A DNA stretch of 64,000 nucleotides from Escherichia virus TH41: the sequence record MT446412.1. One strand, 5' to 3'. Position 1 is the first letter of the stretch; every line of letters begins with the position of its first letter. Below, one piece after another: positions 1,418 to 64,000 of the stretch. A program made the position numbers and the translations under genes. The notes under the pieces were generated by a model. It was not told the DNA's origin and searched no databases. It saw nothing but the letters and a program-made list of their open reading frames with translations.

Positions 1418-2108
<691 letters not shown>

Positions 2109-2168
2109 TGTACAAATGAGTGTAGGTGCAGTATTATGCTCCTACACCAACGAACAAACGGAGTTAAA

Positions 2169-2501
2169 ATGAACATCAAAACTTATAACGAGTTTTTAGC
2201 CGAATCCGCCATCAATGAGACCAAATCAATTGATGATAGTGAAGGCTCTCTGAAATTTGGTTTAACCAAAAACGCAGATGGTGTTTTCTTTCAGATTGGT
2301 AATGAACGTTTTCAAACGTCCAAATATTCCAAAGCTGCAGTTGAAGCTGTCCTAAAATCTGGTGGCAAGTGGAAAGGCAAAGAAGGTACTAAAGAAATTG
2401 GTATCGCTGTTGACGGTGGTATGGCTTATTTTAAAATTGGCGATGAACAATTTATTATGTCTGCTCGCGGACGTAAAGAACTGGCAAAACTTTATAAATA
2501 A
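2169..2501 (+). CDS. capsid-targeted internal protein (IPI-locus member)
   Basis: N-terminus MNIKTYNEFLAE resembles T4 capsid targeting sequence MKTYQEFIAE; located at ipI position next to 57B. Confidence 0.55.
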   Translation: MNIKTYNEFLAESAINETKSIDDSEGSLKFGLTKNADGVFFQIGNERFQTSKYSKAAVEAVLKSGGKWKGKEGTKEIGIAVDGGMAYFKIGDEQFIMSARGRKELAKLYK

Positions 2502-2790: not shown

Positions 2791-3090
2791 ATGCAAACTT
2801 TTCATGAATTTTTGGTAGAAAACAATTACCTGGCAGAAGCAAAAACCTGGCCTCTGGGTCTTCAGAAGAAAAACACCTACAAATGGGTTGACTTCAAAGG
2901 TAAAGGCGACGCTGAAGACTTTGACCAGCTGCGTAAAAATGGTTATACCTTCCTTGACTCTAACTATAACAAAATTACCTCTTTTAGTCAGAAGTCAAGC
3001 ATTGCCTTCATTGAAACTGGTAAGAACTCTCCTAAAGATATCACTGACGACTTCACCGCTTATGGTGTAATTCGTGGTTCAAAAATGTAA
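2791..3090 (+). CDS. capsid-targeted internal protein candidate (paralog of 16952..17215)
   Basis: N-terminus MQTFHEFLVE; shares GDAEDF...RKNGY[TS]F...IAF..G with ORF 16952. Confidence 0.5.
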   Translation: MQTFHEFLVENNYLAEAKTWPLGLQKKNTYKWVDFKGKGDAEDFDQLRKNGYTFLDSNYNKITSFSQKSSIAFIETGKNSPKDITDDFTAYGVIRGSKM

Positions 3091-3145
3091 TGTACACGAT
3101 GGGATAGTTGCAGTATAATTATCCCATCAACTACTGGAGCTACTA

Positions 3146-3424
3146 ATGAAAACTTATCAAGAATTTATTAACGAATCAATTAGTCACCCGGATATGCTGG
3201 AAGACCTGAAAGGACATCTGATGGTTAAGGCCAAACCGGTTGATGGTGGCGCATTTGAGTTGTTTCTTGTTAAAGGCGAAAACGGTCCTGATAACAAGAA
3301 AGTTTCAGCAATGATGTTGACTAAAGGTTACAAAGTCAGTTCTTCCTGGAATGCTCCATTCACTTACGCGGTAAGCCCTCGTGAACTGAAAAAAGTTAAA
3401 GCTGGACAATATACAAAAATTTAG
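3146..3424 (+). CDS. capsid-targeted internal protein
   Basis: N-terminus MKTYQEFINE; preceded by promoter/stem-loop cassette and GGAG RBS. Confidence 0.65.
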   Translation: MKTYQEFINESISHPDMLEDLKGHLMVKAKPVDGGAFELFLVKGENGPDNKKVSAMMLTKGYKVSSSWNAPFTYAVSPRELKKVKAGQYTKI

Positions 3425-3478
3425 TGTACGTGATGGGATAACTGTAGTATGATTATCTCATCAACTACTGGAGACCAC

Positions 3479-3733
3479 ATGAAAACTTATCAAGAATTTA
3501 TTACTGAATCTGCAAATGCAAAAGTTGAGTTTGCTTATGTTGGTTCGCCGCGTGGCAGTTTTTCCAATGAGGAATTCCGTCGTTCACTGGACAATTTCAT
3601 GCAGTTAAGTGCTGAAGTATCGCATGATGGTCGTTATGACATCGTTACTATTAGCGGTTCTGAAGACCTTATCAAAAAGTGGCACAAGCAGAAAGATGTT
3701 GAGATGCGTTACTATCGTATCCCTAAAAAATAA
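3479..3733 (+). CDS. capsid-targeted internal protein
   Basis: N-terminus MKTYQEFITE; start chosen at RBS-supported ATG 3479 rather than upstream ATG 3449 that lies in the promoter. Confidence 0.65.
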   Translation: MKTYQEFITESANAKVEFAYVGSPRGSFSNEEFRRSLDNFMQLSAEVSHDGRYDIVTISGSEDLIKKWHKQKDVEMRYYRIPKK

Positions 3734-3790
3734 GTGTACTTTTAAATGGGATAGTGTATGATTATCCCATCAACTACTGAGGAGAATAAA

Positions 3791-3976
3791 ATGAAACGTT
3801 GCGAATTAATTAGAAATGTTACTGCCCTTGTTGCTGTTACCACTTTTGGTTTTAGCATGTTTGCTGGCTTTATGTTGAATATGCTTTCAACTTCTGAGAA
3901 TATAATCTCTTTAGTAGTTGCATTTTTAATTGGTTCAATCTCTTTCGTTATGGATAAAATCTCTAAAGGTGAGTAA
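3791..3976 (+). CDS. small hydrophobic membrane protein
   Basis: 61 aa, two predicted TM stretches; GAGGAG RBS; start 3791. Confidence 0.5.
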   Translation: MKRCELIRNVTALVAVTTFGFSMFAGFMLNMLSTSENIISLVVAFLIGSISFVMDKISKGE

Positions 3977-4840: not shown

Positions 4841-4961
4841 CAAAAACGCGTTATTATTAATAAGTACCCTCTATTACCAAAGGTTCTTCCCTCAAAGAAC
4901 CTTTCATAATAGCATGTGCTATTAATCAAACTTACTTTACTTAATTTTACTTGAGGTGCTT

Positions 4962-5231: not shown

Positions 5232-5236
5232 TTTTA

Positions 5237-5312: not shown

Positions 5313-5389
5313 CGGGGTGTAGCTCAATTGTATAGAGCAACGGTCTTCTAAACCGTAGGTTGTGGGTTAGAATCCCACCACCCCGACCA
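5313..5389 (+). tRNA. tRNA-Arg (anticodon UCU)
   Basis: Acceptor CGGGGTG/CACCCCG, anticodon stem ACGGT/ACCGT, loop CTTCTAA, T-arm GTGGG-TTAGAAT-CCCAC, encoded CCA. Confidence 0.8.
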
Positions 5390-5404
5390 ATTACTGAGGA
5401 TATT

Positions 5405-5644
5405 ATGGTTATTAGTGAATCATATGCAGTTATGGATATAACCAGCAACGAGCTGGTTTATAGCTTTGATGAGTTTGACGAAAATGATAAACAAGTCCCA
5501 TGGTTTGCATTAACTGCTCCACCTGAACATAATAAATATCTAAGTTTCCCGACTCGCAGACTAGCAACAAATTTTATGGAATTCAATGACCTTGATTCCA
5601 ATTATAAGGTTGTTAAAGTCAAATTAGCTATTACAATTGAATGA
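5405..5644 (+). CDS. hypothetical protein (tRNA-region ORF)
   Basis: ATG 5405 with GAGGA RBS immediately after tRNA-Arg; 79 aa. Confidence 0.45.
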   Translation: MVISESYAVMDITSNELVYSFDEFDENDKQVPWFALTAPPEHNKYLSFPTRRLATNFMEFNDLDSNYKVVKVKLAITIE

Positions 5645-5649
5645 GAAGC

Positions 5650-5860
5650 CGGGTCGCTACCGGTAAGTCGTCGGGGCCTGTTCCCTGGGGTATTGTTCCT
5701 CCCACAGTTTTCTGTGTTCTGGTTCTTTACTATCACATCAGGCACGGCGCACCCTTTTACGGAGTTTTTCCAGAGCGGGCGGTGCGCCCGGTAGTATGAG
5801 AAATCCGAGCGGATGGTGCATCCGGTACTATGGAATATAAATATTAACAACAACCCTAAT
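5650..5860 (+). ncRNA. candidate structured small RNA(s), possibly analogous to T4 rnaC/rnaD
   Basis: GC-rich segment with no credible sense ORF, 8-bp inverted repeat GGCGCACC/GGTGCGCC and GGATG..CATCC hairpin; sits downstream of tRNA cluster. Confidence 0.35.
5836..5843 (+). promoter_or_regulatory. T4-type late promoter TATAAATA
   Basis: Exact TATAAATA about 30 nt upstream of ORF 5875. Confidence 0.5.
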
Positions 5861-5874
5861 AATGGAAAAACAAA

Positions 5875-6258
5875 ATGCTTACATATGCAGAATTTTTAAA
5901 TCGCAATACCATCACCGAATCCGTACTGACTGAAGCTGGCAAATTTTCTTTAGTGGCTCCAGAAAAAGCCGGCGTTTCAATTGGTGACCGTGTTATGTTC
6001 AAGAAACCAGTTAATGGCGTTTCTTGGGGTATCGTAACTGGGTTTGGTATCAAAGCTAAAGATGTTAAAAACGCCGCCGCGCCAGGTGCTAAACTAGCCG
6101 GTTCCAAAGTTTCAACTTATATGGTTCGTCCTAAACAGTCTCCAGGTAATGGTGCCGCTGACTGGGTTGGTGCTCCAATCGAAATCGCTCGTGATAAATT
6201 CTTGAACATCACTGACCGTGCCAACGAACGCGCTGCAATGGCATTCGCTCGCGGATAA
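5875..6258 (+). CDS. hypothetical protein with CTS-like N-terminus
   Basis: N-terminus MLTYAEFLNRNTITE; late promoter upstream; terminator downstream. Confidence 0.5.
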   Translation: MLTYAEFLNRNTITESVLTEAGKFSLVAPEKAGVSIGDRVMFKKPVNGVSWGIVTGFGIKAKDVKNAAAPGAKLAGSKVSTYMVRPKQSPGNGAADWVGAPIEIARDKFLNITDRANERAAMAFARG

Positions 6259-6295
6259 GAACACTTGCCTTGCAGGTGGAACCCCGACAAGGTAT

Positions 6296-6325
6296 AGCCC
6301 CTTCCGAAAGGTTGGGGCTTTTTTA
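6296..6325 (+). terminator. Rho-independent terminator
   Basis: AGCCCC-loop-GGGGCT followed by TTTTTT. Confidence 0.7.
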
Positions 6326-6347
6326 TAAATCAACTAAAGAGAAACGT

Positions 6348-6902
6348 ATGAAACTGTTAAAATATTTGAGTTGGATTCTGTTAGTTCCGCTGGATTTTAT
6401 CTCCATGATTCTGGCCGTTATCCTGGCTCCATTTGTAGTTCCGTTCCATAATAAAAAGACTGGTAAACTTCCGTTCGGGTTTGATTGGATGATGACTTAT
6501 GATAATCCGATTGATGGTGACCGTGGTCATATCAAACGTTGGTCAAAAATCCGAAAATGGCCATTAGGTGTTTACTTCCAACGAGTAGCCTGGCTCTGGC
6601 GAAACAAAGCATACAATTTTGCTTACCACAAGCTCGGTCGTGATTGCAATTCAGAATTCCATTATAAAGGTAATCCTGATGTTGAATCTGGTTCCCCAGA
6701 TAAAGCTCATCATGGATGGCTCTTTATGTGGACGGACAATGCCTGGGGTGTTTTTGCTTCTGTTCCTTATCTTAAGGTCGGTGGAATCACCTTTTATCTG
6801 CGTGTTTATTGTGGCTGGAAGCTCAAGAGCCTTCTGTCCCGACCCATCCCTAAGGCTATGCTCGCCTTTCATATAAATCCGTTCCGCTTTTATAAGAACT
6901 AA
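6348..6902 (+). CDS. membrane-anchored hypothetical protein
   Basis: N-terminal TM helix (WILLVPLDFISMILAVILAPFVVPF), 184 aa. Confidence 0.5.
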   Translation: MKLLKYLSWILLVPLDFISMILAVILAPFVVPFHNKKTGKLPFGFDWMMTYDNPIDGDRGHIKRWSKIRKWPLGVYFQRVAWLWRNKAYNFAYHKLGRDCNSEFHYKGNPDVESGSPDKAHHGWLFMWTDNAWGVFASVPYLKVGGITFYLRVYCGWKLKSLLSRPIPKAMLAFHINPFRFYKN

Positions 6903-6903
6903 C

Positions 6904-6926
6904 AGCCCGCATTGCGGGCTTTTTTA
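6904..6926 (+). terminator. Rho-independent terminator
   Basis: AGCCCGC-ATT-GCGGGCT plus T-run. Confidence 0.75.
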
Positions 6927-6963
6927 TACCCCGAATAAATTTGAAATTTTCTTCAAAAAGTAG

Positions 6964-6992
6964 TGTACATCCAAATTGTCTGGGTGCATAAT
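6964..6992 (+). promoter_or_regulatory. early sigma70-type promoter
   Basis: GTGTAC -35, 17-nt spacer, CATAAT -10. Confidence 0.5.
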
Positions 6993-7043
6993 GATTCCAT
7001 ACTGAGTTACACACTGAATCAAACAAAACTTTGGAGAAATAAA

Positions 7044-7469
7044 ATGAACTTTCTGACCCTGACCTCTGCATTCTCTGTTACCCGCATCACTAACAAAATG
7101 GTTGCTGACGAAGTATGTGAAATCTGCATTCGTGAAGATGCACTTATCCATCTGACTTCAACCCAGATTGTTGCCATTGCCAAGTCCCTTAATTCTGAAC
7201 TGAAGGTAAACACCAAACAGTCAAAAGAATCTATCATTGAATTAATCCAAGCTGAAATGATTGAATTCCCAATTGAAGAAGTTAAAGAAGAAAAAATCCA
7301 GTCCAAATCTGGTAACGCTCGTGACATTTGCTTCCAGGCATTTGCAGAAATTGATATGAATGATAATGCAGCTCGTCGCGCTCTGATTGATGTTCTGGTT
7401 ACCACCCATGATATCAAAAAGACTGTTGTTCAGTCATATGCATCCAACTTCCGCAAAGCTCAAAAATAA
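7044..7469 (+). CDS. hypothetical protein; paralog of 7553..7996 (shared C-terminal domain)
   Basis: C-terminus NAARRALID...VQSYASNFRK shared with next gene. Confidence 0.55.
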   Translation: MNFLTLTSAFSVTRITNKMVADEVCEICIREDALIHLTSTQIVAIAKSLNSELKVNTKQSKESIIELIQAEMIEFPIEEVKEEKIQSKSGNARDICFQAFAEIDMNDNAARRALIDVLVTTHDIKKTVVQSYASNFRKAQK

Positions 7470-7480: not shown

Positions 7481-7510
7481 GTTTTACTTCCAGATGGGAT
7501 AGTGTATAAT
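7481..7510 (+). promoter_or_regulatory. early promoter with stem-loop
   Basis: TTTTAC -35, TATAAT -10 inside inverted repeat ATGGGATA/TATCCCAT. Confidence 0.5.
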
Positions 7511-7552
7511 TATCCCATACTGAGTTACCAAATAAACAAACGGGAAAATAAA

Positions 7553-7996
7553 ATGAAAACTTCAAAACTGGTTAAGTATGTTAAACTGGCATTAAACAAC
7601 TCTTCTGAAGCTGAAGCACAATCCGCAGCACGTATGTTCTTCAAACGTCTGACAGCTGAAGGTATTTCATTTAACCCGGCAGTATTTGGTATCACTCGTG
7701 GCGAAGCTGCTAAACTGGCAACTCTGGCAGGTAAAATTTTTAAAGGTCTGAATGATGGACAGGTTAAACCAGAAGTTAAACCTACTCCTAAAGCTGAACC
7801 AAAAGCTGAACGTAAGGCACCTAAACGCTCCGGTATGAGCAACAAAGATTTATGCTATGATATGTTCAAAACTGTTAATATGTCTAATGGTGCTGCTCGC
7901 AGAGCTGTTATTGATATGATTGTGCGTGAGTTTGGATTCAACAAAGCATCAGTTCAGTCTTATGCTTCCAACTTCCGCAAAGAATTTGAAATTTAA
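7553..7996 (+). CDS. hypothetical protein; paralog of 7044..7469
   Basis: C-terminus GAARRAVID...VQSYASNFRK; Lys/Pro/Glu-rich linker. Confidence 0.55.
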   Translation: MKTSKLVKYVKLALNNSSEAEAQSAARMFFKRLTAEGISFNPAVFGITRGEAAKLATLAGKIFKGLNDGQVKPEVKPTPKAEPKAERKAPKRSGMSNKDLCYDMFKTVNMSNGAARRAVIDMIVREFGFNKASVQSYASNFRKEFEI

Positions 7997-8078
7997 TTAA
8001 AAAGGGGGTATACAAGCCCCCTGCTTTAAGGCATAATGATTCCATACTGAGTTACACAATAAAACACTGGAGAATAAA

Positions 8079-8384
8079 ATGAAATTCATCATCAACCTGG
8101 CGCTTGTTGACTTTGATAAAACTGGTAATTTCGCATCTGCTGAAAATATGATTCGTAACACCAAGTTCAAAGTGCAAGTCCAACAGGCGGTAGCAAAAGA
8201 GTTCTTTACTGATAAATTAACTAACGTTGTTAATCACCTGAATGTGCAAGTTAAATTCACTCGTGAAGCGGAAACTACTGTTGCATTTGATTTTGACTGC
8301 CAATACCATGATGAATATGTTCGCCGCATCCTGGATATTGTGTCTGATGAACTTTATTATGGTGTGCAGGAAAACAAAATCTAA
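8079..8384 (+). CDS. hypothetical protein
   Basis: 101-aa ORF with GGAG RBS. Confidence 0.5.
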   Translation: MKFIINLALVDFDKTGNFASAENMIRNTKFKVQVQQAVAKEFFTDKLTNVVNHLNVQVKFTREAETTVAFDFDCQYHDEYVRRILDIVSDELYYGVQENKI

Positions 8385-8401
8385 ATTAGTGCTTTAATGG
8401 G

Positions 8402-8426
8402 AACATGATAGTATGTTCCCTGGATA
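8402..8426 (+). promoter_or_regulatory. candidate MotA-dependent middle promoter
   Basis: TGCTTTA box, about 12-nt spacer, TAGTAT -10 inside inverted repeat GGGAACAT/ATGTTCCC. Confidence 0.4.
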
Positions 8427-8456
8427 ATAAAACTTTAACCATCTGAAGGAAATACC

Positions 8457-13571: not shown

Positions 13572-13630
13572 GTGTGTACATCCAAGTGGGACCATGACAC
13601 AATGGTCCCACAATCAATGAGGAAAATATT

Positions 13631-14317
13631 ATGAACAGTCCAAAAACTTTTAATTCTCAAGCTCGTGCAGTAGGCGGTTTCGCTGGTAAAATTTCTAATG
13701 ATAAAATCAAAAACGAAACTATGTTCTTCAACAGCTCATTGGCTTTCGCTTTTGACAATGGCGGTCCTATTACTCGCAGCTTTATCATGAACCTGCCGGA
13801 TGATTGGAACACTGACCAGGTTGTATTTGATTCTCGGGTTCATATGTTGATGCCTGGTTGGTATCCTGCTATCCCTGGGTATCACCATGATGATGTGCCA
13901 CGCCCGGATATTCCGGTTGGTCAACACTTTATTACTGCAGGGCAACCTGATTATGATAATCCTCGTTACCATTCTGAACATATTCTTGGTCTTGTTAACG
14001 CCGATGTGTGTCCTACTTATTTTGCAACCGGAACTGCGCAATTTAGTCAGATTCCTGAAGGCGAACTTATCTATCGCCAGTGGCATAAAGAAGTTCTGGA
14101 AAAAATTGAGTCCAATGAATTAACCAAGTGGGATGCTCCTGACCGCACGTTGCTCCAGTTTGATTGGCAGACATGGCATACAGGTTCTCGCGCAGTAAGT
14201 AATGGTTGGCGCTGGTTTGGTCGTGTGTCTCGTAATACCGACCGTGTTAAAAAGATTACAAATGAAATCCGCGTTAATGCTCAAGTATATCTGGAATTCC
14301 CTATGGAGGGCTGGTAA
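13631..14317 (+). CDS. hypothetical protein, possible 2OG-Fe(II)-oxygenase-like
   Basis: 228 aa with YHHDD and distal WHTGSR...R; weak motif evidence only. Confidence 0.45.
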   Translation: MNSPKTFNSQARAVGGFAGKISNDKIKNETMFFNSSLAFAFDNGGPITRSFIMNLPDDWNTDQVVFDSRVHMLMPGWYPAIPGYHHDDVPRPDIPVGQHFITAGQPDYDNPRYHSEHILGLVNADVCPTYFATGTAQFSQIPEGELIYRQWHKEVLEKIESNELTKWDAPDRTLLQFDWQTWHTGSRAVSNGWRWFGRVSRNTDRVKKITNEIRVNAQVYLEFPMEGW

Positions 14318-15614: not shown

Positions 15615-16103
15615 ATGAATATATTCGAAATGTTACGCATAGATGAAGGTTGTAAGTTGGATTTGTATAAAGATACAGAAGGCTTTTGGACCATCGGTAT
15701 CGGGCAACTGATAACTAAGAACCCATCGAAAGATGTAGCTCGCGCTGAGCTCGACAAGCTTATGGGTCGTGTTTGTAATGGTCGCATAACCCAGCACGAA
15801 GCTGAAACATTGTTTAATCGTTCGGTCGAAAAAGCTAAAGCCGGAATCTTGAGACACCCTGTCTTAAAACCTGTTTATGATGTACTGGATGAAGTTCGTC
15901 GTTGTGCGCTCATTAATATGGTATTCCAGATGGGTGTTGCTGGTGTTGCTGGTTTTCCTAAGGGTATGCGATTGTTGAAGGCTAAATCATGGGAAGCCGC
16001 CGCTAAGGAACTGGCCGACTCGAGATGGTATAAAGTCCAGACTCCGAACCGGGCTAAACGAGTTATCGAAACTTTCCGCACCGGAACTTTTGACGCATAT
16101 TAG
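15615..16103 (+). CDS. e: endolysin (T4 lysozyme e)
   Basis: [12 protein letters not shown]...[11 protein letters not shown] matches T4 lysozyme including catalytic Glu11/Asp20/Thr26 region. Confidence 0.95.
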
Positions 16104-16132
16104 TGTACATCTCCAAATGGTAGGGTTATAAT
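16104..16132 (+). promoter_or_regulatory. early promoter
   Basis: GTGTAC-17 nt-TATAAT, -10 flanked by inverted repeat TAGGG/CCCTA. Confidence 0.5.
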
Positions 16133-16158
16133 GGCCCTATCAACTACGGAGAACAAAC

Positions 16159-16575
16159 ATGACTCGCATTAATTTAACTCTGGTATCTGAACTTGCTGAC
16201 CAACATCTTATGGCTGAATATCGTGAGCTTCCTCGCGTGTTTGGTGCAGTTCGCAAACATATACAAAATGGTAAAAAGGTTTCTGACTTTAAAATTCCAT
16301 CATCTTTTCTTTTAGGAACTGGTCATGTCACCTTCTTTTATGATAAACTTTTGTTCCTTAAAAACCGTCATCAAGAACTTATTGCGGAATGTTTAAAGCG
16401 AGGGTTTAACATAAAAGATATTTCTACCCAAGATTTAAATGATATTCCTGATGAATGGAAGAATGATTATCAACCATCAATCTGGTCAATTGAAATCAGT
16501 CAAGCCAGACTGAATGAGAAAATTTCTCAAAAGCCTACCTGGTACAAATACTATGGGAAAGCTGTGTACGCTTAA
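16159..16575 (+). CDS. denV: endonuclease V (pyrimidine dimer DNA glycosylase, denV)
   Basis: [29 protein letters not shown]... near-identical to T4 denV. Confidence 0.95.
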
Positions 16576-16623
16576 CTAAAAAGGTTGTATAATGATTTTA
16601 TCAACCAAACAATGGAATATAAA

Positions 16624-16938
16624 ATGAAAACTTATCAAGAATTTATTACTGAATCTACCCAAAAACGTGTTGAAGGCGGTTATGTCTGGATTGAACAGTT
16701 AACCCCACCAAGTGAAACAAGCACAGGTTCATGGAAAATTACTGTTGATGGTCCTGGCGGCAAACGCAAGACTATTAAAGAAATTAAAGGCTATTATGAT
16801 GAAGCTAAATCATGGGCGGGTAGTCATGTAATGCAGATTAAAATTGCAAATCCGGATAACGTTCATGCAGCAAAAGCATTCCGTCGTATTGGTAATAAAC
16901 TTTATGATGCGTTTTTGCGCGATTTCCCTAAAGCTTAA
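16624..16938 (+). CDS. capsid-targeted internal protein (IPII/IPIII-locus member)
   Basis: MKTYQEFITE at RBS-consistent ATG 16624 (upstream in-frame ATGs lie in the promoter). Confidence 0.6.
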   Translation: MKTYQEFITESTQKRVEGGYVWIEQLTPPSETSTGSWKITVDGPGGKRKTIKEIKGYYDEAKSWAGSHVMQIKIANPDNVHAAKAFRRIGNKLYDAFLRDFPKA

Positions 16939-16951: not shown

Positions 16952-17215
16952 ATGAAAACGTATCAAGAATTTATTACTGAATCTGCCAAAGCTCCTGCTG
17001 GTTCCTTTAAAGTCCGCGCCTTCGCTGGCGATGCTGAAGACTTTGGCACCATGAAGCGCAATGGTTATTCTTTCTTTGGTGGCGATGGTAAAGAAATTGT
17101 CACATATGCAAAACGTCGCGAAATCGCATTCGTGGTTGCTGGTAAGAAAGTTGATGCTGACGATATTGAATGGGACTTTGAGACCTTTGGTATTGTTTCT
17201 GGCGGTAAAGCATAA
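16952..17215 (+). CDS. capsid-targeted internal protein
   Basis: MKTYQEFITE; paralog of 2791..3090. Confidence 0.6.
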   Translation: MKTYQEFITESAKAPAGSFKVRAFAGDAEDFGTMKRNGYSFFGGDGKEIVTYAKRREIAFVVAGKKVDADDIEWDFETFGIVSGGKA

Positions 17216-17217: not shown

Positions 17218-17246
17218 GTTTACTTTATGATGGGATAGTGTATAAT
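17218..17246 (+). promoter_or_regulatory. early promoter with -10 inside stem-loop
   Basis: GTTTAC-17 nt-TATAAT; inverted repeat ATGGGATA/TATCCCAT brackets the -10; followed by GAGGAG RBS. Confidence 0.6.
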
Positions 17247-17274
17247 TATCCCATCAACTACTGAGGAGAATAAA

Positions 17275-17472
17275 ATGTTAACTTATAAAGAATTTATGAA
17301 AGAAGTTAAAAAACTTAAAAAGACTTCTGGCGATGTTAAAATTGAAATCCATGGTCAAAACGTAAATGTGGTAGCGGATGGCCAGGCATTAGTTCTTTAT
17401 AGTGATAAAGACCAAGAATTTCGTGAAGCACAAAAGAAAAAATTTACCGTATGGCTTAAAAAAGCTGTTTAA
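17275..17472 (+). CDS. small basic protein with CTS-like N-terminus
   Basis: MLTYKEFMKE...; 65 aa. Confidence 0.5.
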   Translation: MLTYKEFMKEVKKLKKTSGDVKIEIHGQNVNVVADGQALVLYSDKDQEFREAQKKKFTVWLKKAV

Positions 17473-18976: not shown

Positions 18977-19556
<580 letters not shown>

Positions 19557-19612
19557 TGTACAAGCAGATTGAAATGAGTTATGATTATCCCATCAAACAA
19601 AAGGAGATAATC

Positions 19613-20071
19613 ATGACTACTATCGATTCAAGTGTTTACATTCGCCGCAATAAACTTCGTCGCATTTTTGAAACGGAGTTCCTCAAAATTAATAATGCTA
19701 TCAACAAGGCTTGTAAAGAAGCAGGCCTTGAGGCATTCTTCATTAAGTACAGTCCACATCTGTTGGACCGTGCAATCCAACGTGAAATTGATGAACAATA
19801 TGTTTTTGACTTGTTTGGAAAAATCACACCACATGTAAAAGAAATCGTTGAATTCTTGGAGATGAAACCGCTCCCGGAAGTTGAAGCACAAATTGACCCG
19901 AATATGAACTACCGTCCACTTCGTCTGGAAATTACAGACAAGAACCTGTGGTTAGGAATGACAGTTAACCCAGCTCTTCCTGGGAAGTCTCCGACCATGT
20001 GTTGTCGTATGGCGTTTGTTAACTCTAATCGTCTGGAAGGAAAAATTAGCACAAAAGTGATTTATATCTAA
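19613..20071 (+). CDS. regB: RegB site-specific endoribonuclease
   Basis: VYIRRNKLRR.FE.EF..INN...HLLDRAIQREIDE.YVF.LF...CRMA closely matches T4 RegB; AAGGAG RBS. Confidence 0.9.
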   Translation: MTTIDSSVYIRRNKLRRIFETEFLKINNAINKACKEAGLEAFFIKYSPHLLDRAIQREIDEQYVFDLFGKITPHVKEIVEFLEMKPLPEVEAQIDPNMNYRPLRLEITDKNLWLGMTVNPALPGKSPTMCCRMAFVNSNRLEGKISTKVIYI

Positions 20072-23639: not shown

Positions 23640-23668
23640 AAAGGTCTGCCTTCGGGTGGACCTTTTTT
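23640..23668 (+). terminator. Rho-independent terminator
   Basis: AAGGTC-loop-GACCTT followed by TTTTTT. Confidence 0.65.
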
Positions 23669-23677
23669 CATTTAGGG

Positions 23678-23707
23678 GTTTACATCACCATAAAAAGGGT
23701 GTACTAT
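23678..23707 (+). promoter_or_regulatory. early promoter
   Basis: GTTTAC-18 nt-TACTAT followed by TATCCCATCAACTACTGAGGAG 5'UTR cassette. Confidence 0.5.
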
Positions 23708-23735
23708 TATCCCATCAACTACTGAGGAGAACACA

Positions 23736-23939
23736 ATGAGAATTAAAAATATCAAGATTGATGCAGTTAATACTGGTGATGAGGTTGTTATCTATCTTAA
23801 TGATTATGCAATCTTTATGGACAGTGCCACTGATGAAGAAGTGGTTGAACTCTTACAGAAAGCTCCATTTGAACTGTGTGAAGAAGATGCTACCCATCTT
23901 TCATCAGCAATTTTCTCATTATCATATGTGGTGGAATAA
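23736..23939 (+). CDS. small acidic hypothetical protein
   Basis: 67 aa. Confidence 0.45.
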   Translation: MRIKNIKIDAVNTGDEVVIYLNDYAIFMDSATDEEVVELLQKAPFELCEEDATHLSSAIFSLSYVVE

Positions 23940-26970: not shown

Positions 26971-26999
26971 CTAAGGAACCCTTCGGGGTCCTTTTTTAT
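26971..26999 (+). terminator. Rho-independent terminator
   Basis: GGAACCC-TTCG-GGGTCC then TTTTTT. Confidence 0.65.
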
Positions 27000-27010
27000 T
27001 TTAAAAAGTA

Positions 27011-27040
27011 GTGTACAACCAGATGGTCATGAGGCATAAT
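27011..27040 (+). promoter_or_regulatory. early promoter
   Basis: GTGTAC-18 nt-CATAAT. Confidence 0.5.
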
Positions 27041-27081
27041 GATTCCATACTGAGTTAACAAATAAACAAACGGAGAATAAA

Positions 27082-27288
27082 ATGTTAGAATTAATCAAAG
27101 CTGCTGGTGAAAAAGGTCTGATGGTTAACACTCGTGACCCAGAACAACGTCAAGCATTTGGTGAGTTAAAAGCCAAAGGTCTGGTTAAAGCATCCCTTGG
27201 TATTGGTAATGCTTTGCGTGTGACTTTGACCCCTGCAGGTAAAGCAATGTTCTTCCCTAAACCATTACCAAAACGTCGTCGCAAGTGA
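27082..27288 (+). CDS. small basic protein, possible DNA-binding
   Basis: 68 aa with basic C-terminus PKRRRK. Confidence 0.45.
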   Translation: MLELIKAAGEKGLMVNTRDPEQRQAFGELKAKGLVKASLGIGNALRVTLTPAGKAMFFPKPLPKRRRK

Positions 27289-27599: not shown

Positions 27600-27629
27600 G
27601 TGTACATAGTATGGGGATAGACGTATAAT
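27600..27629 (+). promoter_or_regulatory. early promoter
   Basis: GTGTAC-18 nt-TATAAT inside inverted repeat GGGGATAG/..TTCCCAT. Confidence 0.5.
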
Positions 27630-27665
27630 GTTCCCATACTGAGTTACCAAATACTGGAGAATAAA

Positions 27666-28190
27666 ATGGAAGCCAAATCAATCTTTAATCTGATTAATTA
27701 CAATAATGGTAATTTTAAATCAGAAGCACAAAGTAAGTTCTTTAATGATGTTGCTTGTGCAGGCGAGATTACAGTATCAGGTGGTCAGACTTATAAAAAC
27801 GCCTGGAACTGGATTGTGACTGTTGATTCAGTTGGTATTGTTGATGTGTATAAAAACACCAACAAAAACCGCTCTTTGTTCTGGTCAAGAGAGACTAATG
27901 CAGAATATCAAGCGGCAAGAGCAAAGAAAAATATGCCTACTGAATCTGATGTACAAAACATCAAATCAGATATCCAATATTATGATGGTCTGATTGCTGA
28001 ACAACAAGCAGTGCTTGATAAGTTCAATGAAATCAAAGCATGTAAAGAGATTCCTGAATTCATGCGGGAATCAGTTAATGAACAATACAATCTCACTTCA
28101 GAGCGTATTGAAACCTATACCAAACAAAGAGCAGAGCGCCAGGTACTCCTTCAGAAGTTTGAAGAGCGTTTAAAGACGGTTCTCGCATAA
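27666..28190 (+). CDS. hypothetical protein
   Basis: 174 aa. Confidence 0.5.
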   Translation: MEAKSIFNLINYNNGNFKSEAQSKFFNDVACAGEITVSGGQTYKNAWNWIVTVDSVGIVDVYKNTNKNRSLFWSRETNAEYQAARAKKNMPTESDVQNIKSDIQYYDGLIAEQQAVLDKFNEIKACKEIPEFMRESVNEQYNLTSERIETYTKQRAERQVLLQKFEERLKTVLA

Positions 28191-30289: not shown

Positions 30290-30319
30290 GTTTACTTCCA
30301 AGGATGGAGGGAGTATAAT
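30290..30319 (+). promoter_or_regulatory. early promoter
   Basis: GTTTAC-18 nt-TATAAT. Confidence 0.5.
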
Positions 30320-30346
30320 GAATTCCTACTTTATGAGGAGAACACT

Positions 30347-31336
30347 ATGACACGTAACGAATATATCCAGGCCTTTAACGCAACTATCGACACAAAAGTA
30401 AAACCATTAATAGGCGAATTGGCTATCCTTTTAATTATCAATTATTGGTTAAATCAGATTGACTCGACGATTGTTGCATCTGGGCGCTTCAAGAAAGACA
30501 TTGCAACTATTGCGAGTCGTGCTGGTAACGATGATATCAAGAAAACTTTTAAAAGTTCCCGAGTCCTGGCATACCTGGTTAATAAAGACCTTCTTAATAA
30601 GTTTGGTGTTGAATCCAGGCGTGGTAAAGGTACAATTGGATATCATTGGTTTGGCGATGTTGAAAAATACTATCTTGATAAACAAGGCTATACTGCTTCT
30701 GAATTCGCAAATTGTTGGGCTCGTGAATTCAGAGATAACAAAATGTCTATCATCAAATCAGCGACAAAAATGATGGATGGTGATTACCGCACTATCTGCC
30801 ATTTGGCAGAGCACATGATAAATGTTAAAGAGTCTGGCGAAAACCAGGTAATTATTACAGTTAAGTATGAATTCTTTACGCCAGTGGCTACTCCAGAAAA
30901 TGTCAAAAAGTATCTTGATGCTGCGAGCGCGCTTACTTCACAGCTGCAGTGCGCCCTTAACTATATGCGCACTGTTGAAAAAATTAAAGTAGACCCTATC
31001 ACCAGTACTCATGGTTGGAAAGGTTGGAAAATTGTGGCGACATTGCGTGAAGTTAAATGTGCAAAACAACCAACTGTTGCAGAAATTTATAAAAAGAAAA
31101 GTGAGGAAATTATGAATGCACCACAAGAAACCACCCTTGAAGACCTGATTGATAATCTGAATAATGAGCCAGTGGAACAAAAAGCGCCTGAAATTGTTGC
31201 TCTGGAAATGGCGTATAATAAAGCTCTTGCTGTTAATAAAAAGGCAACTGAAGACTATACCAAAGCCAAGCGACTTTGGGAAGAATCAACTAATCGTCTG
31301 GATAAACTGGAACAGGCTCTGGAGCTGCTGAAATGA
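30347..31336 (+). CDS. hypothetical protein with C-terminal coiled coil
   Basis: 329 aa. Confidence 0.55.
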   Translation: MTRNEYIQAFNATIDTKVKPLIGELAILLIINYWLNQIDSTIVASGRFKKDIATIASRAGNDDIKKTFKSSRVLAYLVNKDLLNKFGVESRRGKGTIGYHWFGDVEKYYLDKQGYTASEFANCWAREFRDNKMSIIKSATKMMDGDYRTICHLAEHMINVKESGENQVIITVKYEFFTPVATPENVKKYLDAASALTSQLQCALNYMRTVEKIKVDPITSTHGWKGWKIVATLREVKCAKQPTVAEIYKKKSEEIMNAPQETTLEDLIDNLNNEPVEQKAPEIVALEMAYNKALAVNKKATEDYTKAKRLWEESTNRLDKLEQALELLK

Positions 31337-37662: not shown

Positions 37663-37902
37663 AAAGGGGTGTACAAGCCCCTTTGAATGATGTATCATTA
37701 TCCCATCAACTACTGATGAGGAGAACATTATGACTATCCAAGATAAAGAAATTAAAGTCAACCAGTATTATTCAATCAACGGCAAAGCTGTTCTAGTAAC
37801 TGAAATATCTAGCCTGGATGTGTGGTATACCATAATTGACCTTAATATTAAAATGATTTGTGACCGTGGTGTATTTTGCTCGATAGCTAAGGAAATTAAA
37901 TT

Positions 37903-51124: not shown

Positions 51125-51154
51125 GTTTACAACGGCAATGGATTGCCGTATGAT
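51125..51154 (+). promoter_or_regulatory. early promoter
   Basis: GTTTAC-18 nt-TATGAT with inverted repeat CGGCAAT/ATTGCCG in spacer. Confidence 0.5.
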
Positions 51155-51191
51155 TACCCCATCAACTGATGAATAACTTGAGGATATTAAA

Positions 51192-51434
51192 ATGGAAACA
51201 TTAATTGCGGGTACTGTTGTTCTTGGTGCAGGTTCTTTCTTCCTGGCTGCACTGGCATATTTTCTGCCGTGGATTATCGCGCTACTGCGTGGAACCAAAA
51301 GTAATTGCGGAATCTTCTTTGTTAACCTCCTGTTAGGTTGGACAATGGTCGGATGGTTTATTGCATTTATCTGGGCACTCGTTGCTGAACGTAAATCAAA
51401 CGCACAAGTAATTATCATCAAGGAATCAAAATGA
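51192..51434 (+). CDS. small two-TM membrane protein (Imm-like by position)
   Basis: 80 aa, two TM helices; adjacent to gene 43 as T4 imm. Confidence 0.45.
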   Translation: METLIAGTVVLGAGSFFLAALAYFLPWIIALLRGTKSNCGIFFVNLLLGWTMVGWFIAFIWALVAERKSNAQVIIIKESK

Positions 51435-55233: not shown

Positions 55234-55241
55234 ATTTAGAG

Positions 55242-55271
55242 GTTTACAACACCATAAAAAGGGTGTACTAT
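55242..55271 (+). promoter_or_regulatory. early promoter
   Basis: GTTTAC-18 nt-TACTAT; near-identical copy of the cassette at 23678. Confidence 0.5.
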
Positions 55272-55302
55272 TATCCCATCAACTACTGATGAGGATAATA
55301 AA

Positions 55303-55551
55303 ATGTTATTAGTTAATGTGCAGTACCAGTTCAAATCTGAAGAAGCTCTCCAAAAGTATGCTGATATTTGTGAGCATAATAAAAGAACAGCTGCCATTGT
55401 TGGTCTGAAGCCTTTTAAAATTTTGGATTGCTCCTTGAACAGAGCAAGACGCTGGTGTAGTGTTGCCTGTCATGCTTCAGTTGAAGGGAATGATTATTTT
55501 TTCATTACTTTCAATGCACAAGATTTTCATTTAATTAATGAATTAAAATAG
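55303..55551 (+). CDS. hypothetical protein
   Basis: 82 aa. Confidence 0.45.
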   Translation: MLLVNVQYQFKSEEALQKYADICEHNKRTAAIVGLKPFKILDCSLNRARRWCSVACHASVEGNDYFFITFNAQDFHLINELK

Positions 55552-55629
55552 TGTACAAGCCCCTTGTCTTAGGACATAATGATTCCATACTGAGTTACAC
55601 AATAAACCAACTGTTAAAAGGAAAACCAT

Positions 55630-55932
55630 ATGTTTAATCAAACCGATATGAACCGTTACTATTTTGGTCAGTTCGCTCGCCGTGATGAAAACTGTGCTGC
55701 TCTTATCGCATCAGGCATTCAAACTGGTAAATTAATAAAGCTCAAAAGCGATGTTCAACCTTCATCTGTTCGCAGCTCTCTTCGTGAGTATCTGCTTGCA
55801 GGCGGGGCAGTATATGTTATCGCTGAACCTTTTGTTAACGTGTGCGACGATTACACAATTAGTGTGACTGTTATGCACCCAACTACTGGGAAAATTCGTT
55901 GTCTGACTATGCACAACTATGAGTTGGCGTAA
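55630..55932 (+). CDS. hypothetical protein
   Basis: 100 aa. Confidence 0.45.
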   Translation: MFNQTDMNRYYFGQFARRDENCAALIASGIQTGKLIKLKSDVQPSSVRSSLREYLLAGGAVYVIAEPFVNVCDDYTISVTVMHPTTGKIRCLTMHNYELA

Positions 55933-55938: not shown

Positions 55939-55962
55939 AAAGGGGCTTACAGCCCCTTTTTC
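55939..55962 (+). terminator. Rho-independent terminator
   Basis: AAAGGGGC-TTACA-GCCCCTTT then TTC. Confidence 0.65.
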
Positions 55963-56000
55963 TTATGTTATAATGACTCTATCAACTACTGGAGAATAAA

Positions 56001-56318
56001 ATGAAAACCATTGATTGCAAGGCAGAATACAAAGTTTATTATCATGGGTCAAGTTCTAATGCTGGAATCCAAAATATGCTTTGTCCTCCTGATGCAACTG
56101 GTGTTCTGTCAGAAGTTGGGCGTAAGAAAAATTTAGGGCGTGTGTTTTTTACTGAAGATATTGGTTTGGCGCGTATCTATGCAGGAAGAGCAGCTCGCTC
56201 ATATGGAGGAGAACCCCGTCTTTATCGTGTGATTGCACCTGTTGACGTGGTTTGTTTAAATGATACTAAAGGCGCAACAGTTTATCACGCTGACTGGGCC
56301 TTCTGTGAGGAAATCTAA
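56001..56318 (+). CDS. hypothetical protein
   Basis: 105 aa; C-terminus ...AFCEEI shares junction with dmd-like gene. Confidence 0.45.
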   Translation: MKTIDCKAEYKVYYHGSSSNAGIQNMLCPPDATGVLSEVGRKKNLGRVFFTEDIGLARIYAGRAARSYGGEPRLYRVIAPVDVVCLNDTKGATVYHADWAFCEEI

Positions 56319-56864: not shown

Positions 56865-56894
56865 GTGTACATCAAAGGGGTAATGCAGTATATT
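56865..56894 (+). promoter_or_regulatory. early promoter
   Basis: GTGTAC-18 nt-TATATT followed by CCCTATCAACTACTGAGGAG cassette. Confidence 0.45.
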
Positions 56895-56922
56895 ATCCCT
56901 ATCAACTACTGAGGAGATTGAA

Positions 56923-57216
56923 ATGAAAAAGTTATTAATCGCAGCAATTCTTACCGTAGCATCATGTGGTACAGCCCCAGTTACTGCTGGGCTTGATAAA
57001 GACCTTTGTGAGTGGTCCATGACTGCGGACCAGACTGATGTTGAACACCAGATTTATGCTGACATCATGAACATTACTAAACGTGACCACCCAGATATGG
57101 TTAAAGAAGTATCTGACCAACTGGCTTCTGGTGACGTTATGCAGTATAACTATGTTCTGTATTGCGATGCTTCATTTGACAACAGCAAGATTGTTCAATG
57201 GGTTACAGGTGAATAA
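56923..57216 (+). CDS. sp: Spackle (periplasmic lysozyme inhibitor / superinfection exclusion)
   Basis: 97 aa, signal peptide, DKDLCEWSMTADQT.VE.QI.ADIMNI.KRD.P.M...V...L.SG.VMQYNYVLYCD matches T4 Sp. Confidence 0.75.
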   Translation: MKKLLIAAILTVASCGTAPVTAGLDKDLCEWSMTADQTDVEHQIYADIMNITKRDHPDMVKEVSDQLASGDVMQYNYVLYCDASFDNSKIVQWVTGE

Positions 57217-61218: not shown

Positions 61219-61222
61219 TTAT

Positions 61223-62831: not shown

Positions 62832-63065
62832 ATGAACTGGTTAACAAATATCCCCACATCGGCGCTGGATATCGACCGTAAACACGCTCATAAGGAAATT
62901 GAGCAACAAAAAATTAATCGCTTACAAAGGATTAAGACTGAATCCAAGACAATTAAAGCCGAACGCCCGACAGAATCGAAAAGTTCTTACTCATCATATC
63001 AATCTCCGATTGGCATGGCCGCAGACATTGCAGTCTTTGGCGTCCCACTTGGAGTATTTAAGTAG
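62832..63065 (+). CDS. hypothetical protein
   Basis: 77 aa from ATG overlapping upstream stop. Confidence 0.4.
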   Translation: MNWLTNIPTSALDIDRKHAHKEIEQQKINRLQRIKTESKTIKAERPTESKSSYSSYQSPIGMAADIAVFGVPLGVFK

Positions 63066-63121
63066 TTTACTTACTCCCCTCCTAATGACATAATGGTCTT
63101 TCTTACAACAGAGAGGCCATT

Positions 63122-63682
63122 ATGAACATCATCAAATCTGATACCGAACCCAACCAGTTAAAATTTAATGAAATGGAGATAGCTTCATTATTTGAATGCC
63201 GCGCATCAAAGGTTGATAAGACCTTACATTCAAACATCAACTCAATCATCAAGTCAAGGTTGTCTATACCTGATACAGTCTTGTATCGTGGGGTAACCCA
63301 GCAAGAGATTGATTTGTTAGATGAAGCAAAAGAATCAATGCAACCTTTTGAATTTGGAAGGATAACCTCCTTTACAGAAGACTATGGTATTGCCAGGGAT
63401 TTTGCTGCAATGGAATATGTGTCAAGGACTATCATCAGATTGAATCATACAAAAGCTTTTTGTTATCATGATGCGATGCGCAAAATCGCGCTTGACGTTC
63501 CACTGGAATTCTTCAATACAGCCTCTGGTTCCGAACAGGCAGCAACGTTAAGGCGTGAAGAATACATGGACATGATTGATTCTGAGCTTGAATGGTTTGT
63601 TCCAGTTGACCAGAAATTCGTGATAGTTGATGCTGGATTTGTTGATGATTATTATGTTCTTGACTGTGTACAAGAGCAATAA
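63122..63682 (+). CDS. ADP-ribosyltransferase (ModA/ModB-like)
   Basis: R-S-E type motifs: LYRGV, ITSFTED, SELEWFVP; position matches T4 mod locus. Confidence 0.55.
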   Translation: MNIIKSDTEPNQLKFNEMEIASLFECRASKVDKTLHSNINSIIKSRLSIPDTVLYRGVTQQEIDLLDEAKESMQPFEFGRITSFTEDYGIARDFAAMEYVSRTIIRLNHTKAFCYHDAMRKIALDVPLEFFNTASGSEQAATLRREEYMDMIDSELEWFVPVDQKFVIVDAGFVDDYYVLDCVQEQ

Positions 63683-63726
63683 GACACGTTAAGATGTTCC
63701 TATCAACTACTGATGAGGATAATAAA

Positions 63727-64000
63727 ATGCTGTACACTGATGACGTTTTGAATGGAATTATTGACATTGCCGCTTCTAGTGAGTCTTTTCGTAACCAATG
63801 TCAAGCGGAGATTGATGCTCTTTATACAGATAATGAACAATCAGTACTCTGGCAGTGTATGGAAAATAAACCCGACCTGATTCAAGAAGACTTAACCAGG
63901 ATTATCCGCAACAATCTGAATACTGCACCACCTGCGGCATTGTTCCGTGGTATATCAAAGAAAACTATGGAATACCTGGAAGATTTCAGATATGTTGGTG
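63727..64000 (+). CDS. ADP-ribosyltransferase paralog (partial, runs off window end)
   Basis: LFRGIS Arg motif; ORF open to end of window. Confidence 0.4.
   Translation, partial: MLYTDDVLNGIIDIAASSESFRNQCQAEIDALYTDNEQSVLWQCMENKPDLIQEDLTRIIRNNLNTAPPAALFRGISKKTMEYLEDFRYVG

Follow-up and report, generated by a model that had tools for sequence, protein, structure and literature searches.

The gap in front of position 17275 in the 64,000-nt stretch of Escherichia virus TH41 analysed here (sequence record MT446412.1; hereafter the window) raises the question of why a promoter should carry its -10 hexamer at an inverted repeat, and why a similar promoter, repeat and ribosome-binding site (RBS) should stand before many other genes. 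A reading of the letters and of the predicted open reading frames (ORFs) alone, the sequence-only reading, had described this unit before more than fifteen genes, had classed it with the early promoter plus stem-loop (PeSL) cassettes of T4-type phages and had proposed that placing the -10 hexamer in the stem makes promoter strength depend on hairpin formation. PeSLs are known from RB49/phi1 (Arbiol et al., 2010, PMC2839356) and, in sequence variants of their own, from T4/PST and KVP40/nt-1 (Comeau et al., 2014, PMC4122927). Genome motif and profile searches confirmed the recurrence and brought the number of cassettes to about 25. These are probably the PeSLs of Gaprivervirus, that is, portable early-expression units of about 60 nt placed between the genes of the early strand.

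An 8-kb piece around the 17218 cassette was 96.6% identical to Shigella phage SP18 (Straboviridae, Tevenvirinae, genus Gaprivervirus), and the further coliphages of about 170 kb matching it were P896, P479, VR7, VR20, VR25, VR26, TH44 and TH54. By synteny with SP18, the + strand, which holds nearly all ORFs, is the early-gene strand, and the gene order is gp3, gp1, 57A, ip genes, tRNAs, e, denV, regB, tk, nrdC.x, nrdD/G, gp55, gp46/47, gp45/44/62, gp43, uvsX, gp41, modB and modA. Judged from this similarity and gene order, the window is the early-gene region of a T4-like Gaprivervirus, with SP18 and TH44 as its nearest relatives.

The cassette at 17218 and its copies

The elements of the 17218 cassette are the following:

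17213..17215, +, stop codon TAA, ending the internal-head-protein gene upstream (16952-17215; phrog_2667), 2 nt before the -35 box
17218..17223, +, -35 box GTTTAC, followed by a 17-nt spacer
17228..17256, +, hairpin TGATGGGATAGT-gtata-ATTATCCCATCA, 12 bp, one of them G·U; RNA folding energy -16.4 kcal/mol
17241..17246, +, -10 box TATAAT, bases 1-4 in the hairpin loop, bases 5 and 6 in the 3' arm
17253..17274, +, predicted +1 A (7 nt past the -10 box) and 22-nt A-type leader ATCAACTACTGAGGAGAATAAA; start placed by sigma70 geometry
17265..17275, +, GGAGAATAAAA, Shine-Dalgarno (SD) sequence matching the RegB/S1 consensus GG*AGRAYARAA at 11/11 positions; its final A opens the ATG
17275..17472, +, 65-aa ORF with the internal-protein-like N-terminus MLTYKEFMKE; ORFan

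The repeat consists of a perfect 8-bp core, ATGGGATA (17230-17237) and TATCCCAT (17247-17254), which grows to 12 bp when one G·U pair is included (17228-17239 with 17245-17256) and leaves a loop of 5 nt. In its 101-nt context this hairpin gave a fold z-score of -3.3, and the leader was unpaired in the centroid structure. The repeat is followed by CAACTACTGAGGAGAATAAAATG and by the ATG at 17275; seen from the promoter, the downstream part reads TATCCC, the A at 17253 (predicted +1), the leader TCAACTACTGAGGAGAATAAA and the ATG. The 65-aa ORF at 17275-17472 matched no PHROG family. It is present in TH44 and missing from SP18 and TH54, the junction lying inside a repeated N-terminal coding sequence.

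Each of the approximately 25 cassettes of the window precedes a gene, and all of them lie on the + (coding) strand. A loose regular expression for the -35 and -10 boxes gave 98 + strand matches versus about 84 in shuffled sequences and was uninformative alone; therefore a profile hidden Markov model (HMM) and the position relative to ORFs were used. The profile HMM, built from 17 cassette copies, detected 19 + strand sites at E<=2e-5 and five more at E<0.1, while on the - strand of the window nothing scored below E=3; the 25th promoter (63065) was found by pattern. The arrangement ATGGGATA-N(5-14)-TATCCCAT occurred four times versus 0.00 expected, with actual gaps of 9-13 nt, and the 23-nt leader with at most three mismatches also occurred four times versus 0.00 expected, being exact in just two cassettes. 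The 17-nt leader cores TATCCCATCAACTACTG and ATTCCATACTGAGTTAC were found at 11 and six intergenic + strand sites, respectively. All 19 sites listed in that reading exist, but they amount to 18 distinct cassettes, since its entries 7481 and 7520 are parts of a single hybrid unit, and three of its coordinates, 19565, 37690 and 63690, are mid-unit positions, the corresponding -35 boxes standing at 19556, 37669 and 63666, respectively. Absent from its list were the cassettes at 2108, 13574, 16564, 55945, 30290 and 63065 and the weak one at 12140.

The layout of the unit comprises an upstream stop codon, a -35 box GTKTAC, a spacer of 17/18 nt, the -10 box, a predicted +1 A, a leader of 20-45 nt, the SD sequence and ATG. 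The pattern GTKTAC-17/18-TAnnnT describes 25 sites, all on the + strand, at which a generic sigma70 scan gives 9-10 of 12 matches. In most cassettes the upstream TAA or TAG adjoins or overlaps the -35 box (e.g., AAAAATAAGTGTAC, or AAAAATAA running directly into GTGTAC), and in those with a stem at the -10 box the stop lies 0-12 nt from it. The A+T content of the 20 nt upstream of the cassettes ranges from 55 to 95%, the predicted +1 is an A in 23/25, and all 25 end in the SD sequence and start codon of the downstream gene. No MotA box was found in any of the 25 cassettes; therefore these promoters are of the early and not of the middle type, and the latter candidate was ruled out.

The leaders are of two types, A (ATCAACTACTG...) and B (ATACTGAGTTAC...), which are unlike at their 5' ends and converge on GGAGAATAAAATG. 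The strong intergenic RegB/S1 cleavage consensus of T4 is GG*AGRAYARAA (PMC3014915; PMC1702504), and in that phage RegB sites in SD sequences functionally inactivate early mRNAs within minutes. The sequence GGAGAATAAAA has seven exact + strand copies, each ending on the A of a cassette start codon, and at least 10 of the 11 consensus positions are matched before 12 of the 25 cassette genes versus 0 of the 137 other predicted genes. The window also contains regB, itself behind a cassette. The conserved RBS of the cassette is thus predicted to double as a strong RegB/S1 target, a feature that the sequence-only reading had missed; as the ending combines a strong SD sequence with the full consensus, RegB is predicted to cut it at GG^AG.

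The remaining cassettes of the window, together with the regB gene, are listed below:

2108..2171, +, peripheral cassette GTGTAC-18-TATTAT; interrupted 11-bp stem GTGTAGGTGCA/TGCTCCTACAC across the -10 box
3090..3148, +, A-type, upstream of an internal-protein-like gene (MKTYQEFI); -10 box spanned by a 13-bp stem
3424..3481, +, A-type; 11-bp stem; the downstream internal-protein gene really starts at ATG 3479
3734..3793, +, A-type; 10-bp stem; leader identical to that at 17218
6963..7046, +, B-type; no stem at the -10 box; canonical terminator upstream, 6904-6920
7482..7555, +, hybrid of A-type promoter and stem with B-type leader; the unit listed twice in the sequence-only reading
8008..8081, +, B-type; hairpin AGGGGGT/GCCCCCT with the -35 box in its loop
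12140..12220, +, weak cassette (HMM E=0.08); stemless, with an exact RegB site
13574..13633, +, peripheral; perfect 10-bp stem of other sequence, GTGGGACCAT/ATGGTCCCAC (13586-13611)
16103..16161, +, A-type before denV; variant 11-bp stem TGGTAGGGTTA/TGGCCCTATCA
16564..16626, +, peripheral, before an Ip10-like gene; only a weak, G·U-rich stem
19556..19615, +, A-type without stem, before regB
19613..20071, +, regB endoribonuclease gene (phrog_1323, E=1e-71)
23678..23738, +, A-type, -10 box TACTAT; short spacer hairpin only; near-identical to the 55242 cassette
27011..27084, +, B-type; bulged 8-bp stem; terminator just upstream (about 26975-27000)
27600..27668, +, B-type; 13-bp stem TAGTATGGGGATA/TGTTCCCATACTG with three G·U pairs
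30290..30349, +, peripheral, before nrdC.4; -10 box with a 6-bp stem; -35 box overlapped by an 8-bp hairpin
37669..37732, +, A-type; -35 box in the loop of AAAGGGGT/GCCCCTTT
51125..51194, +, A-type before imm; spacer hairpin CGGCAA/TTGCCG
55242..55305, +, A-type before goF; spacer hairpin
55551..55632, +, B-type; intact stem absent
55945..56003, +, A-type; -35 box in the loop of a terminator-like hairpin GGGGCT/AGCCCC, then TTTTTCTT
56865..56925, +, A-type before sp (spackle); 10-bp stem AGGGGTAATG/TATTATCCCT (56876-56900)
63065..63124, +, peripheral promoter GTTTAC-18-CATAAT before modB (63122-63682); 15-bp hairpin (63089-63124) CATAATGGTCTTTCT/AGAGAGGCCATTATG
63666..63729, +, A-type, -10 box TAAGAT, before modA; hairpin around the -35 box

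At the 3424 cassette the longest-ORF call begins at an ATG inside the -10 hexamer TATGAT (3449); ATG 3479 as the true start is indicated by the SD sequence upstream of it and by the MKTYQEFI motif. The segments 23665-23738 and 55230-55305, lying 31 kb apart, are nearly the same for some 70 nt, a likeness that begins before the -35 box (TTTTTCATTTAGRGGTTTACA...) and suggests a recent copy or gene conversion.

The hairpin at the promoter hexamers

A stem of at least 10 bp over the -10 box, allowing G·U pairs, was found in 9/25 cassettes at P<=0.002 versus spacer shuffles, and counting the interrupted stem at 2108 and the bulged one at 27011 the number of cassettes with a stem at this position is 10-12. 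A further group of about six (8008, 37669, 55945, 63666, 30290 and 63065) has a hairpin around the -35 box, three (51125, 23678 and 55242) have spacer hairpins, and two (6963 and 27011) have separate terminators upstream. The sequence-only reading had placed the -10 hexamer typically within a perfect 8-bp repeat; the exact repeat is indeed present in four cassettes, but "typically" overstated its frequency.

The arms differ in sequence from cassette to cassette, yet they pair, as in ATGGGATA/TATCCCAT, GTGGGACCAT/ATGGTCCCAC, TGGTAGGGTTA/TGGCCCTATCA, TAGTATGGGGATA/TGTTCCCATACTG, GTGTAGGTGCA/TGCTCCTACAC and AGGGGTAATG/TATTATCCCT. When arms were swapped, pairing of a cassette's 5' region was weaker with foreign 3' arms than with the 3' arm of the same cassette; none of 20000 permutations reached the observed value, and the result was unchanged without the near-identical ATGGGATA copies. 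Column scoring on MAFFT alignments proved misleading, as it gave a wrong register for 2108 and misaligned a VR26 cassette with an intact stem, and variation was studied instead by finding the stem of each cassette separately and by comparing G·U with A·C pairing. In the window, SP18, TH44, TH54 and VR26 there were 32 distinct stem alleles, each of at least 8 bp. The changes among orthologues preserved pairing; they were C to U opposite G (2108, 3424, 17218 in TH54, 38664 in SP18), A to G opposite U (7482 and 56865) and G·U to A-U (16103); the 2108 stem showed, in TH44, AC to GU at the two outer pairs together with repair of the internal mismatch and, in VR25, one double G-C to A-T change. Stems measured 8.03 bp with G·U allowed versus 7.29 bp with A·C allowed (p=0.013), shuffled spacers being biased in the opposite direction. 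These patterns indicate selection for pairing. As the G·U pairs that are kept would be A·C mismatches on the other strand, the signature is of the RNA type, and it points to a hairpin of the sense-strand RNA and away from a cruciform in DNA or an operator bound by protein.

The 5' arm of a stem at the -10 box lies upstream of the start of transcription at its own promoter; a transcript from that promoter thus lacks this arm, and only RNA reading through from upstream can fold. The probable working of the unit would then be as follows. Host sigma70 RNA polymerase would initiate at the A that lies some 7 nt past the -10 box and produce an unstructured leader (AUCAACUACUG... or AUACUGAGUUAC...) ending in GGAGAAUAAAAUG; the phage RegB, acting as in T4, would cut GG^AG and stop translation of the early genes within minutes. 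The hairpin, formed only in read-through RNA, would most likely be an intercistronic insulator, which may attenuate read-through or, after cleavage of the leader, shield the 3' end of the upstream message. Placing the -10 or -35 hexamer in the loop may be a packing solution, in which the constrained hexamers stay unpaired and the arms are built from spacer and discriminator/+1 sequence, so that an RNA hairpin and a DNA promoter could share a gap of about 60 nt. Finally, the repetition of 50-70 nt of near-identical sequence offers homology for recombination, by which small genes are inserted, deleted and swapped, as seen versus the relatives.

A more specific proposal, which we advance only tentatively, is that the hairpin at the -10 box is an RNA element specific to the origin of the transcript which, with the RegB/S1 site 10-30 nt downstream, forms a module of processing and insulation that makes each cassette-bounded gene autonomous in expression and decay. 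The RegB cut would silence the downstream gene, and the hairpin would cap the new 3' end or would pause or attenuate read-through without a U-run. If so, this autonomy would be what permits free shuffling of the genes, and the role would be new for the stem-loops of PeSLs.

Two explanations acting at the DNA level were weighed against an RNA hairpin. The inverted repeat could extrude as a DNA hairpin or cruciform, or alter melting of the -10 region, and so set promoter strength, as in phage N4; this would fit the -10 hexamer lying in or at the loop of an 8-13 bp repeat in about ten cassettes, and a short loop with arms of 10-13 bp could exist in supercoiled DNA. However, a cruciform needs both strands folded, and each allele contains one to four G·U pairs that mismatch on the other strand; moreover, half of the cassettes keep the -35 box, -10 box and leader without the repeat, others carry equivalent hairpins around the -35 box or upstream of the promoter, canonical sigma70 boxes at a spacing of 17/18 nt need no hairpin, and loops of 5-11 nt generally disfavour extrusion. 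We regard this mechanism as very improbable, and the proposal of the sequence-only reading that promoter strength depends on the hairpin was left without support, both by the RNA-like G·U variation and by the roughly one half of the cassettes having the same boxes and leader but no -10 stem. The repeat could otherwise be the operator of a dimeric phage protein that shuts off the early promoters minutes after infection. A palindrome over the -10 box is the classic geometry of a repressor site, ATGGGATA/TATCCCAT recurs exactly four times, and the mechanism of early-promoter shut-off in T4 is unresolved (PMC3014915); yet at least 32 arm sequences retain pairing and not sequence (e.g., GTGGGACCAT, TGGTAGGGTTA, TAGTATGGGGATA and GTGTAGGTGCA), G·T positions break the DNA palindrome, the loop varies from 3 to 11 nt, and many early-type cassettes have no repeat, all of which makes an operator highly unlikely.

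With regard to explanations other than DNA structure or binding, the hairpin could be a functionless passenger of a duplicated unit, maintained by gene conversion or by template-switch correction of a quasi-palindrome, the promoter, leader and homology being what matters. The near-identical copies at 3734/17218 and 23678/55242 and the SP18 cassettes at the 27011 and 27600 positions are in line with this, as are hairpinless cassettes that otherwise seem intact. It is nevertheless unlikely given that unrelated arms all pair in a cassette-specific manner in the swap test and that substitutions in orthologues are biased to changes preserving sense-strand pairing; in addition, cassettes without a -10 stem usually have another hairpin nearby, which suggests that some hairpin is required. 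The original PeSL model, in which the stems are plain intrinsic terminators isolating each gene as a transcription unit, is rather unlikely here. The PeSLs of RB49/phi1, whose stems may overlap the -10 box, showed promoter and terminator activity in reporters, and the PeSL211/210 stem-loop of RB49 cut lacZ expression about as rrnB T1 did (PMC2839356). At the cassettes of the window the features of an intrinsic terminator are found only in the hairpin around the -35 box at 55945 (GGGGCT/AGCCCC followed by TTTTTCTT) and in the separate terminators before 6963 and 27011 (6904-6920 and about 26975-27000). The stems at the -10 box, by contrast, run into CAACTACTG or ACTGAGTTAC, and the 8 nt behind them contain 0-3 T; the terminator scan of the + strand flagged no such stem, and these stems are A/U-rich, with G·U pairs and energies of -7 to -16 kcal/mol; furthermore, delayed-early and middle expression in T4 depends on read-through of early transcripts (PMC2988021). 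Two other candidates were discarded: an RNase III site, the stems being too short, and masking of the RBS by the main hairpin, whose 3' arm stops before the SD sequence.

Several observations weigh against identifying these cassettes as PeSL units that work in the way set out above. The promoter scan found no extended -10 TGn at any of the cassette promoters that it listed. No convincing hairpin was found in three or four cassettes (12140, 19556, 55551 and, apart from its upstream terminator, 6963), and therefore the hairpin is not obligatory. As the T-run is lacking after the -10-box stems, the terminator role attributed to PeSL stems is doubtful for this class. The G·U versus A·C asymmetry is statistically modest, and the enrichment of recombination breakpoints described below is moderate under a gene-junction null (p=0.012), with many indels elsewhere. 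Finally, T4 and RB49 are the source of what is predicted here on start sites, on the timing of the promoters and on cleavage by RegB.

The promoter before modB is a particular case. Its hairpin (63089-63124; -19.1 kcal/mol) pairs the -10 region with the SD sequence and the ATG, so that transcripts from its own promoter, which lack the 5' arm, would be translatable and read-through RNA would be masked.

Three other sites combine hairpins with promoter-like elements. At 8390-8432 there is a middle-promoter-like site with a MotA box (TGCTTTA, 12 nt, TAGTAT), whose -10 box is spanned by the hairpin GGGAACAT/ATGTTCCC of 8-9 bp, with GGATAATAAAA after it; the site resembles the "PmSL" variant described for nt-1, and TH54 has a 447-bp insertion exactly there. 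The hairpin GGGGTCAT/ATGACCCC at 38660-38700 surrounds TGgTATAAT (an extended -10 with no clear -35 box) and also precedes GGATAATAAAA; SP18 has a C to T change in its 3' arm that keeps a G·U pair, both SP18 and TH54 have indels of about 125 bp close to it, at 38460, and the site may be a degraded or variant cassette. The third, 61219-61294, is a composite of terminator and middle promoter, with the terminator-like hairpin GGAACC-ttcg-GGTTCC and a T-run, a MotA box (TTTGCTTTTA; about 61240-61280), TATAAT and GAGGAGAATACTATG.

Distribution and recombination of the cassettes

The 62-nt cassette matched 30 of 50,697 phage records, every one of them of Gaprivervirus type, and in IMG/VR it was found only in VR20, VR25 and VR26 (nine loci). 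A search of IMG/VR with the 15-mer TCCCATCAACTACTG returned 77 loci, 68 of which were discarded as chance matches, the other nine being these genuine cassettes. Rfam at the gathering threshold gave two tRNAs (5237-5386) as its sole matches over the whole window and no family at the cassettes.

Colinear comparison of the window with SP18, TH44 and TH54 revealed 53 distinct breakpoints. The cassettes occupy 2.9% of the window and contain ten of these breakpoints (p=3e-6), and 15 breakpoints lie at most 45 nt from a cassette; under a stricter null that considers gene junctions, 14/47 were at cassette junctions versus 16% expected (p=0.012). One case is a chimera: SP18 lacks the ip gene 3479-3733 and has in its place a single cassette whose 5' half is that of 3424 and whose 3' half is that of 3734. 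Other differences next to cassettes are an additional ORF in TH44 and TH54 between two B-type cassettes at 7530 (hybrid cassette 7482), extra ip genes in TH44 against the cassettes 3090 and 16103 (at the 5' edge of the latter), an extra ORF of SP18 inserted at cassette 13574, insertions in SP18, TH44 and TH54 at the 5' edge of cassette 27011, replacement in TH54 of the segment between cassettes 55242 and 55945, and absence from SP18 of the ORF 56523-56864 upstream of the 56865 cassette. These indel breakpoints, the chimeric cassette and the layout of the unit agree with the assignment to PeSLs made in the sequence-only reading.

Six small genes (3146, 3479, 16624, 16952, 17275 and 17481) open with the internal-protein capsid-targeting motif MKTYQEFI..., in the variant MLTYKEFM at 17275, and several indel junctions (3175, 16662/16952 and 17310/17481) sit in this coding repeat and not in the promoter cassette. 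In TH44, at about 5085-5110 (by window 3101), a perfect palindrome GGGGATAATTATCCCC followed by TTTTT was observed upstream of the extra ip gene; it looks like a cassette stem minus its loop and -10 box, converted to a canonical terminator.

The relatives also differ at other places of the window. The tRNA region 4354-6916 diverges strongly from that of SP18, with about 2.2 kb here versus about 0.57 kb there, and contains two tRNAs (5237-5310 and 5313-5386) versus three in the SP18 annotation. The nrdD-nrdG pair (34454-36271 and 36268-36738; segment 34444-36853) is replaced by 134 bp in TH44, is unannotated in VR26 and is present in SP18.

These data extend PeSL-type cassettes to a fourth T4-like lineage, the Gaprivervirus group, whose members are widely isolated for phage therapy, and mark out approximately 25 genes as predicted immediate-early ones, among them several ORFans with a probable part in host takeover. 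If the assignments are confirmed, the portable unit carries its own switch-off signal (RegB/S1) besides the switch-on signal, and a stem existing only in read-through RNA argues against a promoter switch at the DNA level and, for the class with a -10 stem, against a simple intrinsic terminator. For phage engineering, the cassettes would be the safest points at which to insert or delete genes.

Comparison with known phage systems

The virion RNA polymerase of phage N4 is the phage's own enzyme and uses DNA hairpin promoters with a stem of 5-7 bp, a loop of 3 nt and no sigma70 boxes. The cassettes share with them an inverted repeat at the promoter and differ in their canonical sigma70 boxes and RNA-like variation; the G·U-type asymmetry of the stems and these boxes therefore set them apart from a two-strand cruciform promoter of the N4 type. 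In the T4 genes e, soc, 49 and I-TevI, long transcripts hide the RBS in a hairpin, and transcripts starting inside that hairpin leave it free. A promoter inside a hairpin is common to both systems, and the modB promoter (63065-63124), with its paired SD sequence and ATG, fits this type fully, whereas in the main family some 10-30 nt separate the 3' arm from the SD sequence, and the RBS stays unmasked.

The early promoters of T4 have excellent -35 and -10 boxes, an A/T-rich UP-like upstream region and an extended -10 TGn (PMC2988021). The cassette promoters resemble them in being of a strong sigma70 type with A/T-rich sequence upstream and in standing before regB, modA, modB, imm, goF, denV and ip genes; unlike them, they have no TGn, and the 20-45 nt past the start are conserved among copies, which is not a stated feature in T4. 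The likeness to the RegB/S1 sites of T4 (PMC1702504; PMC3014915) consists of GGAG within the SD sequence of early genes, an A-rich tract after it and the presence of regB, but in the window the site belongs to a repeated mobile cassette and not to an individually evolved RBS, and its cleavage is predicted. The polymorphic internal-protein (IP) loci of T-even phages, as reported by Repoila et al. (1994, cited in PMC4122927 and PMC2839356), consist of variable ip genes flanked by a conserved promoter/leader and an N-terminal targeting sequence. Unlike the loci as cited there, the cassettes also precede regB, denV, imm, goF, sp, modA and nrdC.x genes.

A literature search found no account of these cassettes for Gaprivervirus, VR7, JS98 or SP18, an earlier mention in the VR7 genome paper or in the T4 MMBR review being possible. 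Among known systems, the PeSLs share with them the order of the parts (stop codon in an AT-rich stretch, sigma70-type boxes, stem-loop, SD sequence and ATG), the variable position of the stem-loop, with five published subclasses including overlap with the -10 or the -35 box, the dozens of copies before small early genes, and the location of copies at the borders of indels and replacements between close relatives, chimeras included. In contrast to the published families, the Gaprivervirus one has the -35 box GTKTAC instead of TTGACA and stems of the GGGATA/TATCCC type instead of polyG/polyC, is confined to genomes of Gaprivervirus type of about 170 kb, possesses a far more conserved leader bearing a full RegB/S1 site, and combines -10-box stems devoid of a T-run with an RNA-type pattern of variation. 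All the defining features of PeSLs that can be examined in a sequence were found and, on these grounds, the cassettes of the window are a lineage-specific and largely ordinary version of PeSLs.

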